DNA of 64,000 nt from an uncultured Candidatus Rokubacteria bacterium. GTDB lineage: Bacteria > Methylomirabilota > Methylomirabilia > Rokubacteriales > DASRDR01. The position numbers and the translations under genes were made by a program. The DNA is taken from positions 352,001 to 416,000 of the forward strand of contig CAWGVS010000005.1 in assembly GCA_963826115.1 (NCBI GenBank). Reading direction: 5' to 3'. This document shows positions 43,192-56,991 of this stretch, one piece after another. Position 1 is the first letter of the stretch. Each line of letters opens with the position of its first letter. Below the pieces are notes generated by a model. The model had not been told where the DNA came from. It searched no databases and was given only the letters and a program-made list of their open reading frames with translations.

Positions 43192-43307
43192 GCGGCGCAT
43201 GATACGCGAACGGCGGCGCCGTCGGGAAGGTGGGCGAGGGTATGATGTCCCTCGTTCCCGGCGCGGGCACGGACCCGCCACCGAATCCACATCGCGAGGA
43301 GAAGCGC

Positions 43308-44154
43308 ATGGGCAGGCTCGAGGGCAAGGTTGCGATCGTCACCGGCGCGACGAGCGGCATGGGCAAGCGCACGGCGGAGCGGTTCGTCGAGGAAGGGGCC
43401 ACCGTGATCGTCGCCGGTCGCCGCGAGGCGGAGGGCGAGGCCGTCGTGCGGGCGCTCGGGCCGCGCGCGCTGTTCGTCCGCACCGACGTCGCGCGCGAGG
43501 ACGACGTCCGGCGCATGATCGGCACGGCCGTCGACCGGTACGGCCGGCTCGACTGTCTCTTCAACAACGCGGGCGGACCGGGGCCCCGGGGTGGCGTCGA
43601 GACGATCCCGCTGGACGCCGCCGAGCGGTCGATGGCGGTGAACTTCGGCGGCGTGCTGCTCGGGATGAAGCACGCGGCGCCGATCATGATGCGGCAGCGC
43701 TCGGGGAGCATCATCAACAACGCCAGCGTGGCCGCCAGCCGCGCCGGGTACTCGTCGTCGATGATCTACAGCGCCGCCAAGGCCGCCGTCGTCCAGCTCT
43801 CGCGCTGCGTGGCGATGGAGCTCGGCGAGCACGGCGTCCGGGTGAACTGCATCTCGCCCGGCGCCATCGTCACCGGGATCCTGCTGAAGGCCCTCGGGCT
43901 GCCGCCACGGCCAGGCCGACGACGTCTCGGTCGGGCTCACCGAGCGGTTCGCGGCGCAGCAGCCCATCCCGCGCGCGGGATCGGTCGACGACATCGCGCA
44001 CATGGCCGTGTTCCTGGCGAGCGACGAGTCGACGTTCGTCACGTCGCAGGACATCGTCGTGGACGGCGGCCAGATCAGCGGCCGGCTGTGGTCGCCCCAG
44101 CAGGAGGGGCTCCGCCAGCTGAAGCAGGCGTTCGGCCTGCCGGCGGAGGGCTGA
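43308..44154 (+). CDS. SDR family oxidoreductase with one +1 frameshift near 43905
   Basis: TGATSGMG, NNAG, YSAAK, VNCISPG in one frame; AVFLASDESTFVTSQDIVVDGG continues in the next frame; span 847 nt = 3n+1. Confidence 0.82.
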
Positions 44155-48647: not shown

Positions 48648-50970
48648 CTACAGCCCCGGCCGCGACTCCGTGGGCGGCGGGTCGTAGGCCCGGATGGGCG
48701 GTACGGGACCGGTCCAGCGCTCGACCTCGACCAGGGCGTGCTGGCCGGAGCAGCCCTGGGCGAGCTTCGACGTGCCGCGGTCGAAAGTCAGGACGTTCGG
48801 GTTCCCGTGGACGCACATCGCGTCCGGGTCCGCGGGGTCGAGCGGGTCGTACCAGGCGCCGGTCGCCAGCTGGACCACGCGGGGTCGCACCGCGTCGGTG
48901 ACCACCGCGCCCGCGAGGCAGCTGCCCCGGCCGTTGAACACGCGCACGACGTCGCCGCTCCGGACCCCGCGCGGCTCCGCGTCCGACGGGTGGATGCGGA
49001 TCGGCTCGCGCCCCGCGACCTTGGACGCCTGGCTGAACGCGCCGACGTCGAGCTGGCTGTGGAGCCGCGTCGTGGGGTTGTTCGCGACCAGGTGGAGCGG
49101 GTAGCGCTCGGCGAGGGGCGCCCCGAGCCATTCCGTCGGCTCGAGCCACGACGGGTGGCCCGGGCAGTCCTTGTAGCCGAAGCCGTCGACCGTCTCGGAG
49201 AAGATCTCGATGCGCCCGCTCGGGGTGGCGAGCCGCGCGCCCTCCGGATCGTCGCGGAACGCCTTCAGGAGCACCAGGTCCCGGTCGGCGTCGGCGACCT
49301 CGAGGGACCCCGCGGCCCAGAACTCGTCGAAGCCCGGCAGCGCCGGCCCGCCGCGGTGCAGGACCTTCTCGCGCCAGCCTCCGTAGAGGTGCCGGAGCCA
49401 GCCCATCTCGTCGCGCCCCTCGGTGAAGCGCGGTGCCCGCGCCCAGCGCCGCGGCGAGGTCGCTGAAGATCGCGTACTCGCTCCGCGACTCCCGGTACGG
49501 CTCGATCGCCTTCCGCATCGCGATCAGGCAGGGGTCGTTCGGAGAGCCGCCGATGTCGTTCCGCTCGAGCGTCACGGTCGCGGGCAGCACGATGTCGGCG
49601 TGCCGCGCCATCGCCGTCCAGAACGGATCGTGCACGACGACGGTGTCCGGCGTGGCGAGGGCGCGTCGCAAGCGGGCGAGGTCCTGGTGGTGGTGAAAGG
49701 GGTTCCCGCCGCACCAGTACACGAGCCGGATCCGCGGGTAGGCCAGGCGCTTCCCGTCGAAGTCGAAGGGCTCGCCCGGCTGGAGCAGCATGTCGGCCAG
49801 GCGGGCGAACGGGATGGCGGCGCGCACCGGGTTCGGCCGCTGGGGCAGGGCGGGGGGATGGCTCCGGAGGGGCGGGCGGCCGACGTAGCCGAGCGAGCCG
49901 TAGCCGCTGCCGAATCCGCCGCCCGGGAGCCCGATCTGCCCGAGCATCGCCGCCAGCGTGACCACCATCCACGGCGCCTGCTCGCCGTGCTCAGCTCGCT
50001 GGAGGGACCAGTTCGCGTTGATGAACGTCCGGCGCGACGCCATCCGGCGCGCGAGCGTCCGGATCGTCGCCGCGGGGATCCCGGAGATCCGCTCCGCCCA
50101 CTCGGGCGTCTTGGGCGTCCCGTCGTCCGCGCCACGGAGGTAGCGCTCGAAGCGGTCGAAGCCCGCGCAGTAGCGCCCGAGGAACTCGCGGTCCGCGCGC
50201 TCCTCGGCGACGAGCGCGTGGGCGAGGCCCAGCATGAGCGCGACGTCGGTACCGGGGACGACCGGGAGCCACTCGGCGTCCAGGAACTCGGGCAGGTCGT
50301 CCCGCATCGGGCTCACCAGGACGAACTCGGCCCCGCGGGCCCGCATGGCGCGCAGGTGGTCCCGGAGAGGGTGGCGGCTCGCGCCCCCGGGGCTCACCAT
50401 CGTGTTCTTGAGCGGGATGCCCCCGAAGCAGACGAAGAGCTCGGTGTGGCGCTCGATCACGGACCACGCAGTGGCGCGGTCCAGGTAGCTCCGCATGTCG
50501 CCCAGCACGTGGGGCATGATCACGGTCAGGGCGCCGTTACTGTACGTGTGCTCCCCGCGCACGAAGCCGCCGAGACAGTTGAGGAAGCGGTGGAGCTGGC
50601 TCTGCGCGTGGTGGAAGCGCCCCGCGCTGGCCCATCCGTAGGAGCCTCCGTACACCGCCTCGCCGCCGTGGGCGTCGTAGACGCGCCGGAGCTCTCGCGA
50701 CAGGAGATCGACGGCGGTCGGCCAGCTGACCGGCACGAAGGGCTCGGCGCCCCGGCGCCGGTCGGGTCCCGGGCCGCGGTCGAGCCAGCCGGCGCGGACC
50801 ATCGGCTGCGCGATGCGCGCGCGGTGACGGAGGCTCCCGGTGATGTTGCCGAGGAGCGGCGACGGGTCCGTGTCCTCGCGGTGGGGGTGGACCGCGACGA
50901 CGGCGCCGTCCTCGACCTCCGCCTCGAAGGCGCCCCAGTGGGACGCGTGGAGCTGCCGCTCGGTCGTCAT
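48648..50970 (-). CDS. Molybdopterin oxidoreductase, BisC/TorZ-like S/N-oxide reductase, with one +1 frameshift near 49433
   Basis: ASHWGAF, GSYGWASAGRFHHAQSQ, HTYS Mo-ligand Ser, GGNPFHHHQD; TPSGRIE and RLHSQ in the next frame; no Tat signal; span 2323 nt = 3n+1. Confidence 0.88.
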
Positions 50971-51132
50971 GTCGCGCTCTCCCGGGGCGAGAATGGCACG
51001 GCGGAGCGCGCCGGGACAAGCGTCGCGGCCCGTCCCCCTTGCGACGCGCGCCCGCCTTCGTCTATGTTCCGCTGGCCGGGGCAGTCGGGGCCCGGCGGGG
51101 ATACTCTCACTGATCCGGAGGGACGGCGACGC

Positions 51133-54031: not shown

Positions 54032-54708
54032 GCTCGATCTACCGGCGCGCGCTCGGCGCCGACTTCGATCGGCTGCACCCCCAGATCCAGCGGCGGTTCG
54101 GCTTCGGGAGCGCCGACGGCGTCGCCTCGATCGGCACGGGACGGATGGAGGAGGTGTGGCGCGGCCCGGCCTACACGCTGCCGTTCCTCGCCGTCGGCGC
54201 GTGGCGCCACATCATGTTCCCGGCGACCGGGCGGGACGTGCCGTTCCGGATCGAGAACTACGCCTACGTCGACGGGCTCGGTCGCGAGACCGTGACCTGG
54301 GTGCGGACCTTCGAGCTCCCGGGCCGGACCCGCCGCTTCGACGCCACGATGATCTACGCCGAGCGACGCGGCTGCATCGTGGACTACCTCGGCACCCACC
54401 AGCACCTCGCGGTGGACATTCACCTGTCCGTCGACGAGCGGGGAGGTCTCCGCCTCCGGTCGGGCGAGCAGCGGTTCTACGAGGGCCCGGTCGCGTTCCG
54501 CTTCCCGCTGCTGTTCTCCGGCGTGGCGGACGTGCGCGAATGGTTCGACGACGCCGCGGGACGGTTCCGGATCGAGGTGACCGTGACGAACCGGACGTGG
54601 GGACGCCTCTTCGGCTACCGGGGCTGGTTCACCGCCGCGTGGCCCGCGTGCCCGCCGGCCGCGGTGCCACCGCACGTCCGCCCGCTCCGCGAGGAGCCCC
54701 GTGAGTGA
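54028..54708 (+). CDS. DUF4166 domain protein (YndH-like)
   Basis: IYRRALGADFDRLHP, ETVTWVRTF, DYLGTHQHL, LFGYRG. Confidence 0.78.
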   Translation: MSSIYRRALGADFDRLHPQIQRRFGFGSADGVASIGTGRMEEVWRGPAYTLPFLAVGAWRHIMFPATGRDVPFRIENYAYVDGLGRETVTWVRTFELPGRTRRFDATMIYAERRGCIVDYLGTHQHLAVDIHLSVDERGGLRLRSGEQRFYEGPVAFRFPLLFSGVADVREWFDDAAGRFRIEVTVTNRTWGRLFGYRGWFTAAWPACPPAAVPPHVRPLREEPRE

Positions 54709-55147
54709 GGGGCGCCCGGCCACCGGCGACGGGCCGATCATCCTTTACGACGGTGTCTGCGGGCTGTGCAACCGGCTCAACCGGTTCGTGCTGGCCCGCG
54801 ACCGGGCGGGCCGCTTCCGCTTCGCTCCGCTGCAGGGTCGCCTCGCCGGGGAGATCCTGACGCGCCACGGCCGGGATTCCCGCGACCTCGACACCCTCTA
54901 CCTGGTCCTGGATCCGGGCCGCCCGGGGGAGCGCCTGCTCCGGAAGTCGGATGCCGCGCTCTGGATCCTCCGCGAGCTCGGCGGGCCCTGGCGGATGGCC
55001 GGCGCCCTCCGTGTCGTGCCGCCGGCGCTCCGTGACCTCGGCTACGACATGGTCGCGCGGACCCGCTACCGCCTCTTCGGGCGATACGACAGCTGCCCCT
55101 TGCCGGCCCCGGAGCATCGCGACCGTTTCGTCGACCTCGGCGCCTGA
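54701..55147 (+). CDS. DCC family thiol-disulfide oxidoreductase (DUF393)
   Basis: LYDGVCGLC, FRFAPLQG, KSDAAL, RD.GY..VAR.RY..FG. Confidence 0.9.
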   Translation: MSEGRPATGDGPIILYDGVCGLCNRLNRFVLARDRAGRFRFAPLQGRLAGEILTRHGRDSRDLDTLYLVLDPGRPGERLLRKSDAALWILRELGGPWRMAGALRVVPPALRDLGYDMVARTRYRLFGRYDSCPLPAPEHRDRFVDLGA

Positions 55148-55154
55148 CCTCCGG

Positions 55155-55696
55155 TCAGCGCTCGACGGCGGCGAGGAGGTCCCCGACGGGGAGGGCGTCG
55201 CCGAACGACTCGCTCGGGCGCGCGTAGCGGTCGACGTCTCCCGGGCCGAGAACGAAGCTCCCGCCGAGCTGGAACGGGTGCTGCCCCGTCCGCCCCTGGC
55301 GGTATCCTCCCGCCCGTGCCCGCTTCTTGGCGAGCCAGTTGGCATGGCGGAAGAGGTGGCCGAGCGAGGCGGACCGCAGCTCCACCGCGCGGTACGCGGT
55401 GCGTTGCGCGTCGACCAGCAGGGGAAAGGCGATCCCCGACTCGTCGCGGAACGCGCGGGCGTAGCCGAGCGTCCCCCATGCCGATCGCGGCGAGCCGCGC
55501 CCCGCGCGACCCGGAATTCCCCCTCGTGGTCGCGCAACTGCGCGACGTGCTCCCGGCAGAACACTCAGCCGTAGTGGCGGAGGAAGACGAGGACCGCCGG
55601 AGCGTCGGTCCACAGGCTGCCGAGGCGGACCGGCCGCGCGTCGGCGTCGGGCAGGACGATCGGCGCGAGCCGGGCCGCGATCGACGCCGTCGCCAT
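55155..55696 (-). CDS. AhpC/TSA-like (PRXL2/SelL-related) redoxin, predicted selenoprotein (UxxC); two +1 indels near 55510 and 55475
   Basis: VLVFLRHYG-TGA-VFCREHVAQL, then GARLAAIGMG, then FPLLVD...AYRA...QLGGSFVLGPG across frames; span 542 nt = 3n+2. Confidence 0.78.
55529..55546 (-). promoter_or_regulatory. Putative bacterial SECIS hairpin
   Basis: GUCGCGC-AGUU-GCGCGAC, perfect 7-bp stem starting 18 nt after UGA (55565-55567), G at loop position 2. Confidence 0.65.
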
Positions 55697-56136
55697 CAGG
55701 CGAGGCGCCGGTGCTCGACCATCAGGCACCGGTCCTGGACCACGCGGATGCCGGCGCGCGCCCAGGTTTCTGCCGCCTCCTGGTGCGCGATCCCCAGCTG
55801 GAGCCAGACGGCGCGAGGCTTCACCGCCAGGATGTCCTCCACGTGGGGCGGAATGTCGCGCGGGCGCCGGAAGACGTTGACCATGTCGATCGCGCCGGGC
55901 ACGGCCCGGAGCGATCGGTAAACCGGGCGCCCCAGAATCTCGACGACCTCCGGGTAGTAGACCGGCACGGGCACGACGTCGTAGCCGTGCCGCAGCATGT
56001 AGTCGGGCACGTAGAAGGCGGGCGCTCCAGCGCGCGACTCCGGCTTGATTCCGAGGACCGCGATCCGGCGGCACTCCCGGACGAGCGCCGCCATCTCCTG
56101 GGAGTCCGTCACGAGGTTCGCCCGCCAGGAATTCAT
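55696..56136 (-). CDS. CoA-binding protein (YccU-like)
   Basis: RIAVLGI, IDMVNVFRRP, VWLQLGI, VVQDRCLMVEH; TGATG coupling to the redoxin. Confidence 0.9.
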   Translation of the reverse strand: MNSWRANLVTDSQEMAALVRECRRIAVLGIKPESRAGAPAFYVPDYMLRHGYDVVPVPVYYPEVVEILGRPVYRSLRAVPGAIDMVNVFRRPRDIPPHVEDILAVKPRAVWLQLGIAHQEAAETWARAGIRVVQDRCLMVEHRRLA

Positions 56137-56298: not shown

Positions 56299-56991
56299 CT
56301 AGCTCGACCTCTTCCAGCGGCGGCGCCCCACCGCTCCGAGGCCGACGAGACCGGAGCCGAGGAGCAGGAGCGAGGCAGGCTCGGGCGTCGGCGCCACCTG
56401 CAGGTGGTCGACCTCGAAGAAGATCGGCCCGCTGTTGGTGACACGAACCGAGCTAATGCCCGCCGGATCGTACACCCCGAGGAAGCCTTCCACGGCGTGG
56501 TCGAAGCCCCCCGGTGTGGCATCGATCGCGGACGAGGTTTGGCTGTTCGCGGTCATGGTGAAGCTGTTGGTGAAACCAGCGGCGTCGTCGTACACCCAGA
56601 GGCCAAAGCCGAGGACCGGCTGCGAGAACGTGAACTCGATCTGGCTATCGGGTCCCGCGCCTCCGGAGCGGTTCAACAGAGCGGCGTCGAAGACCGTGCC
56701 CAGGACGCCTCCGTCGTAGCTTCCCCTGAAGATCTCGGCGCCGGAGACCGGGATGTTGGGCAACGAGAAGGTGATGTCCAGGCCGCCCAAGGTGATCTTC
56801 GGGATGTCGCCGTTGGCATAGGCGTCCAGGCTGTCCTCGAAGAAGGTTCCGACCGTGCCCTGCCAGCCCGTGTCGTTGGCCGGGTTGGAGCCCGAGACCG
56901 CGAAGAAGATCGGAACCGCGCCAACCGGCCCTGCTGCCATCACGGTGCTCGCAAGCGTCAGCCCGAGCACGGTTCTGCCCCAAGGCGTCAT
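56299..56991 (-). CDS. PEP-CTERM sorting domain-containing secreted protein
   Basis: N-terminal signal peptide; C-terminal TPEPASLLLLGSGLVGLGAVGRRRWKR (PEP + TM + basic tail). Confidence 0.92.
   Translation of the reverse strand: MTPWGRTVLGLTLASTVMAAGPVGAVPIFFAVSGSNPANDTGWQGTVGTFFEDSLDAYANGDIPKITLGGLDITFSLPNIPVSGAEIFRGSYDGGVLGTVFDAALLNRSGGAGPDSQIEFTFSQPVLGFGLWVYDDAAGFTNSFTMTANSQTSSAIDATPGGFDHAVEGFLGVYDPAGISSVRVTNSGPIFFEVDHLQVAPTPEPASLLLLGSGLVGLGAVGRRRWKRSS

Follow-up and report, generated by a model that had tools for sequence, protein, structure and literature searches.

A probable selenocysteine-containing UxxC redoxin gene, interrupted by two likely assembly errors, in a Candidatus Rokubacteria genome

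The genome of an uncultured Candidatus Rokubacteria bacterium is likely to encode, at positions 55696..55155 of the stretch of DNA analyzed here, a UxxC redoxin whose first motif residue is selenocysteine (Sec), with a SECIS-type hairpin in the gene and with two frame shifts that appear to be assembly errors. The stretch, hereafter the window, covers 64,000 nucleotides (contig C5, positions 352001-416000) of an assembly of 6.24 Mb in 12 contigs. The original prediction for 55155..55696 was made from the letters of the window. We confirmed that the sequence features it described are real, and its interpretation of the gene as a recoded selenoprotein is supported by comparison with related genomes. 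The elements of this comparison are a recoding signature, the Sec machinery of the genome, the family membership of the orthologs, and an assembly that is error-prone, all of which are directly observed.

The redoxin gene (55155..55696, minus strand, about 180 residues) was delineated from its translations, from Pfam and NCBIfam matches, and from collinear orthologs, and we read it as one Sec-encoding UGA plus two single-base insertions that interrupt the copy present in this assembly. It starts with an ATG (55696-55694) and runs for 43 codons up to TGA 55567-55565. The translation of frame 1 is VLVFLRHYG-TGA-VFCREHVAQL, which places the TGA in frame at the first position of the redoxin CxxC motif, just as the original prediction had it. 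This codon (55565..55567, minus strand) is the candidate Sec, the first residue of UxxC: its column holds TGA in homologs and is aligned to the first CxxC Cys of the structure 9us9. The resolving Cys is encoded by TGC at 55556..55558 (minus strand), which corresponds to an invariant column (C47) of our alignment (A2). Approximately 57 nt past the TGA, the protein moves to the next frame for about 13 codons, and then to the third frame, which it follows to the stop at 55155.

Upstream of the redoxin lies a CoA_binding_2 gene (55696..56136, minus strand; PF13380, 120.9 bits), and a gene for a DCC1-like thiol-disulfide oxidoreductase (54701..55147, plus strand; PF04134, 97.6 bits) converges on its 3' end. 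The reported coupling to a CoA-binding protein gene is visible as a TGATG overlap, in which the redoxin ATG shares its A with the CoA_binding_2 stop TGA (55698-55696). Just upstream of the CoA-binding gene, we observed an ORF (56299-56991, minus strand) with a homolog in one related locus alone. We take its tail to be a PEP-CTERM-like sorting signal, consisting of P-E-P, a hydrophobic stretch, and basic residues.

The C-terminal part of the protein matches the Pfam family AhpC-TSA_2 (PF13911) with 39.9 bits, above the gathering threshold of 27. The 62-residue N-terminal part matches PF00578 with 21.3 bits, under the gathering threshold of 26, and PF00578 is among the precomputed Pfam annotations of the full-length relatives. 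The NCBIfam model NF040769 (SelL-related redox protein) is the top NCBIfam match for all the homologs (21/21). Its cut-off is 120 bits, and 12 of the 14 same-family orthologs score between 121.8 and 130.5, the other two having 114.5 and 117.8. Because of the frame shifts, the window copy is scored in two pieces, the N-part with 55.8 bits and the C-part with 38.5 bits. The ortholog group of the window is at the edge of NF040769; nearer to the core of the model is a paralog type (L048 and L049) that scores 184-192 bits and has a TGA at the same column. That members of NF040769 are known selenoproteins we infer from the name of the model.

The nearest solved structure is that of the prostamide/prostaglandin F synthase (PRXL2B, PDB 9us9; E-value 9.2e-19, profile positions 17-177), whose G-C-x-x-C-R is aligned with moderate confidence to the G-U-x-x-C-R of the redoxin. 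The synthase is a Cys enzyme, and its substrate is not transferable to the redoxin. A second entry for this synthase has both cysteines changed to serine, and the next structural matches are BCP-type peroxiredoxins and ResA. The SelL proteins of aquatic eukaryotes have a UxxU diselenide motif and a eukaryotic SECIS in the 3'-UTR. The redoxin has in common with them a Prx-like thioredoxin fold and a Sec in the redox motif, but it departs from SelL proper in its UxxC motif (U-V-F-C), where the second position is the invariant Cys described above, and in its hairpin, which is inside the coding sequence as in bacteria. SelL has itself been called a Prx-like protein (PMC2398784). Among selenoproteins, Table 1 of PMC13188914 includes a Prx-like thiol:disulfide oxidoreductase (PF00578, UxxC) and a peroxiredoxin-like protein (cd02970, UxxS), and the prokaryotic selenoprotein catalogue of PMC2398784 lists Prx-like 1-3. 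As described in these sources, the catalogued Prx-like selenoproteins share with the redoxin the fold class, the Sec at the first position of the motif, and the in-frame bacterial SECIS.

The two frame shifts were placed by nucleotide alignment with 16 orthologs. Both are +1 shifts on the minus strand and both face a gap in 16/16 orthologs: the first is caused by an extra base, a T on the coding strand, at about 55509, and the second by an extra base at about 55469. Once both are removed, the gene gives an ortholog-like peptide. All contigs were decoded with a codon-position HMM, for which 1370 long ORFs of the genome served as training set, and a same-strand junction was counted as a stopless frame switch when the upstream frame met no stop within 75 nt. 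The HMM puts a frame change at 55478. Across the genome, it identifies 253 stopless same-strand switches among 2811 direct coding junctions, a count that is uncalibrated (it comes from this single genome) and for which two further candidates, both in the window, were checked by homology. The switches are net +1 in 199 cases and net -1 or +2 in 54, to be compared with 1239 vs 1572 for all junctions. They cluster along the contigs, for instance in the last ~50 kb of C5, in the last ~45 kb of contig C6, and in the second 100-kb bin of contig C11.

The first of the two candidates is a short-chain dehydrogenase (43203-44151, plus strand) split by a +1 shift near 43890-43904: positions 1-180 of adh_short_C2 are in one frame (43203-43904) and positions 189-234 in the next (43888-44151). 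The second is a molybdopterin oxidoreductase (48681-50976, minus strand) split near 49427, with no stop between its two Pfam domains. These domains, Molybdopterin (49429-50976, minus strand) and Molydop_binding (48681-49427, minus strand), are in different frames. Judged by such domain matches, the comparison shows the splits of the dehydrogenase and of the molybdopterin oxidoreductase to be real breaks. The +1 excess of the assembly looks like a systematic single-base insertion error.

At the level of the reads, the matching data sets listed were Logan contigs from soil metagenomes (shares 0.28-0.05), with no RNA data set among them, and the four that we aligned left 55472-55647 uncovered. 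One contig of run X3, 320 nt long and with 7 differences over 308 nt, ends in 12 letters whose match to the window starts at 55470 and not at 55469, so this contig lacks the base at 55469 and reads in one frame. A run of its differences from the window is spaced in multiples of three (55239, 55245, 55248, 55251, 55260), a pattern consistent with purifying selection that still acts on the true frame. With about 250 stopless switches in the genome, mostly net +1 (199), and a further two of them inside the window, the two +1 shifts of the redoxin are probably assembly insertion errors. The indels noted downstream of the TGA are present, and their attribution to sequence error is backed by the +1 excess, by the other breaks of the window, and by the X3 contig.

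An alternative that we consider unlikely is that the family is indeed a Sec family, yet the window copy is a recently inactivated pseudogene in which both inserted bases are real. Two +1 shifts within 40 nt that do not compensate each other would fit such a decay, and two insertions at this distance in a small gene are unusual even at ~40 such events per Mb. Moreover, the first insertion is outside the read and contig coverage, and the six-frame search returned one redoxin copy only in this genome. Against the pseudogene are an assembly-wide +1 excess (199 vs 54) that affects ordinary enzymes in the window, and a near-identical contig of run X3 that lacks the second insertion. Downstream of the shifts, the differences of the X3 contigs include a run in multiples of three, as expected under purifying selection. 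Two bases aside, the gene is as conserved as its orthologs. Since the shifts are most likely assembly insertions, we think that the organism probably makes the full redoxin.

The TGA is a recurrent feature of the relatives of this gene. A six-frame search of 60 related genomes with the C-terminal 107 residues as query gave matches in 21 of them, in addition to the genome of the window. TGA is found at the exact column in 21 of the 23 homologous loci (from 19 other genomes) and Cys in two (L045, L047), and such a recurrence in foreign loci puts the feature far beyond chance. All the same-family orthologs have it (16/16 loci in 16 genomes, of which 12 share the genus of the window and 4 do not). 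The 43 codons ahead of the TGA are kept in frame throughout these orthologs, and in none of the 16 does the frame change from the TGA to the C-terminal domain. The TGA loci that are more distant are five in number (L043, L044, L046, L048, L049). Two of them, L048 (G019) and L049 (G039), belong to a second, divergent paralog (H-R-H-L-G-U-L-P-C) that is present in some relatives, also as TGA forms. The redoxin at L036 (G013) diverges from the family at the extreme C-terminus, and the one at L037 ends at a contig edge.

We also searched a protein collection with the L028 ortholog as query and classified the best 120 clusters. Among these, 21 are full-length proteins that have Cys at the column and share 55-70% identity with the query, and 93 are truncated, with 43 beginning one codon past the column and 44 at the leucine of Q-L-R. 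Five more are full-length with Trp at the column (P0010, P0013, P0018, P0028, P0032) and one is full-length with Arg. The Trp in those five proteins may be a TGA translated by a pipeline under a code where TGA=Trp. P0008, a Cys form from metagenomes, shares 97% identity with L040 (G019), a TGA form from a genus different from that of the window, and the pair may correspond to a recent switch from Sec to Cys, or the reverse. An alignment of homologs had been proposed as a check of the prediction, and it returned what a selenoprotein would lead one to expect at this column: TGA in the 21 loci, Cys in two loci and in the 21 full-length database proteins. The family therefore provides a Sec/Cys pair and a UGA kept in independent genomes with the reading frame conserved on both sides.

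The hairpin that had been described 18 nt downstream of the TGA, a perfect stem GUCGCGC/GCGCGAC closed by the loop AGUU, is present at 55529..55546 (minus strand). This SECIS-type element, GUCGCGC-AGUU-GCGCGAC, was characterized by folding and by its pairing in 22 sequences. It has a stem of 7 bp and a UGA-to-loop spacing of 25 nt, and its minimum free energy of -12.1 kcal/mol (z -4.2) is equalled by 0/200 shuffles. The bacterial SECIS model given in PMC13188914 has a loop of 3-9 nt, an upper stem of 4-16 bp, an MFE of at most -7.5 kcal/mol, a UGA-to-loop distance of 16-37 nt, and a G within loop positions 1-2, often followed by G or U. The window hairpin agrees with all five of these rules. 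Under scripted versions of them, model-compliant hairpins are found in 21/22 TGA forms, the exception being L040, vs 12/77 Cys forms. When the Cys forms are restricted to those with a GC of at least 0.65 in the stretch, 9/30 are compliant, and a compliant hairpin with its loop at 25 nt is found in 1/77 Cys forms. The element thus falls within the published bacterial constraints, as set out in the source used, and the check by SECIS prediction suggested with the original prediction came out in its favor.

The 7-bp stem is paired in 90.3% of 154 cells (22 sequences), as compared with 17.5-57.1% in slid controls, a conservation that in close orthologs is for the most part confounded with that of the peptide VAQLRD. 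Double-sided changes affect 4/7 stem pairs, and the observed score is reached by 0/500 shuffles. It is chiefly the paralogs L048 and L049, where pairing is retained, that contribute these double changes. RNAalifold on the 22 sequences retains just the 4 inner pairs, and its covariation term is small (-0.43 kcal/mol). The Leu codon of the loop is TTG in 18/22 sequences, and TTG makes 2.0% of the 186,071 Leu codons of the genome. This codon choice is, at the level of sequence, an argument for the hairpin that is independent of the peptide. The Ala and Arg codons of the stem are always GCG and CGC in the window copy and in the 16 same-family orthologs.

A second stem had been proposed in the 18 nt between the TGA and the hairpin. 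It does fold in the window copy (55547..55564, minus strand), but its conservation in relatives is poor, with 73.5% of cells paired and with 2/6 pairs unpaired in 13-14 of the 22 sequences. We rejected it as part of the SECIS element for this lack of conservation, and it is probably incidental.

The genome encodes the machinery for Sec, the search for which had been put forward as a first check. The tRNA-Sec scores 76.9 bits, for a gathering score of 47, and is called SeC(tca) by ARAGORN. The matches of selB (347.8 bits), selA (576.5 bits), and selD (393.2 bits) complete the set, and all four exceed the curated cut-offs. The genes for selB, selA, and tRNA-Sec (L001, L009, L017) are clustered on one strand of contig C8 (81424-86039). 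We observed that selD (L019; contig C5, 561687-562604) carries an in-frame TGA of its own in the motif G-A-G-U-A-C-K, followed 20 nt downstream by an 8-bp hairpin with a GGA loop. As far as sequence can tell, the Sec system of this genome is complete and is used by at least one other gene, selD. In the whole set, selA was found in 52/61 genomes, including 20/20 of the family besides the one studied here. The search gave no selA in G042, consistent with the Cys form of the redoxin in that genome, and none in G055 (unpublished, 99% complete), a discordant case given the TGA form L046 and its hairpin. Breaks similar to those of the window are seen in the assemblies of relatives, with selA split in G050 and matched in part in G013 and G059.

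These data bear on two other explanations of the TGA. One is that it is a true stop, the product being either a 135-residue ORF starting from the GTG after the TGA or a peptide of 43 residues. We regard this as highly improbable. The truncated annotation of 93 of the best 120 database clusters would agree with it, but every ortholog keeps the 43 codons that precede the TGA in frame, and in alignments this segment corresponds to the first strand and first Cys both of 9us9 and of the full-length Cys forms. A truncated form, moreover, retains only one half of the redox motif, and the Sec system of the genome is complete. It is scarcely credible that the TGA is an assembly error for TGC or TGT, in a strain that would carry a Cys form, since 16/16 independent same-family assemblies show the TGA and the hairpin and the errors detected are insertions, not substitutions, even if the assembly is error-prone, the site is outside contig coverage, and Cys forms are known, including one with 97% identity to a TGA form of another genus.

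If the gene encodes a Sec redoxin, which is the reading we prefer, Sec-tRNA(Sec) and SelB would insert selenocysteine at UGA 55567-55565, and the hairpin within the coding sequence would recruit SelB. The actual incorporation of selenium at this codon is what the gene, its relatives, and the machinery predict. In the protein, the selenolate would attack an oxidized substrate (disulfide, sulfenic acid, or peroxide). The Cys three residues on would then resolve the intermediate, giving a selenenylsulfide that a thiol reductant would reopen. This cycle would be the usual mechanism of UxxC redoxins, extended to the present protein by analogy with its family.

The neighbors of the gene are frequent in its lineage: the CoA-binding gene is upstream in 13/16 same-family loci, and the DCC1-like gene downstream in 12/16. 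Neither neighbor was found within 1.5-kb flanks in 75 Cys-form loci of other phyla (0/75), which come from a search with the motif back-translated as Cys and are uninformative on the spread of TGA forms. Conversely, the redoxin is downstream in 5/80 CoA-binding loci, and all five are labelled Rokubacteria, Rokuibacteriota, or Methylomirabilota. On these two counts, we rejected a functional coupling to the CoA-binding gene beyond the lineage. Among named relatives, those closest to the CoA-binding protein are 79-88% identical to it and have the same three labels, which points to this group as the most likely origin of the window. At one related locus (L030, in G012), the CoA-binding gene is split over two frames. 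One might imagine that the CoA-binding protein, the Sec redoxin, and the DCC1-like protein form a selenium-dependent module specific to soil Rokubacteria-like lineages and acting on CoA-linked thiols, an idea that we hold to be quite improbable. As an example, such a module could reduce CoA-protein mixed disulfides or CoA disulfide.

The original prediction presented the gene as a hidden selenoprotein. This is accurate for gene callers, which truncate it in the 93 clusters mentioned above, and less so for the family, which is already curated as NF040769; the gene is hidden from gene callers only. Part of the truncation has a simple origin, as the rare TTG within the SECIS loop is taken as a start codon by gene callers (44/120 clusters). 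Our literature search for "SelL-related" or NF040769 found no paper naming either, and in the tables and text of PMC13188914, NF040769, PF13911, and SelL-related have no occurrence. The only publication that our search found on selenoproteins in Methylomirabilota or Rokubacteria is that same review (PMC13188914, 2026), where a Methylomirabilota MAG is predicted to have 63 selenoprotein genes. What is new is the individual Sec redoxin. The class of UxxC Prx-like and Trx-like selenoproteins with in-frame SECIS has long been known (PMC2398784, PMC13188914).

These results have consequences for annotation. The redoxin and its relatives should be annotated as a single Sec-containing ORF of about 180 residues. 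The broken genes of this genome are probably mostly artefacts and, given its many single-base insertion errors, should not be read as pseudogenes without the reads. The redoxin leaves the knowledge of Sec decoding unchanged, and it adds one UxxC member to the selenoproteome of a phylum already reported to be rich in selenoproteins. Finally, soil metagenomes seem to contain Sec forms of this redoxin family very commonly, nearly always annotated in truncated form. If this is true, the selenoproteomes of soils are undercounted.
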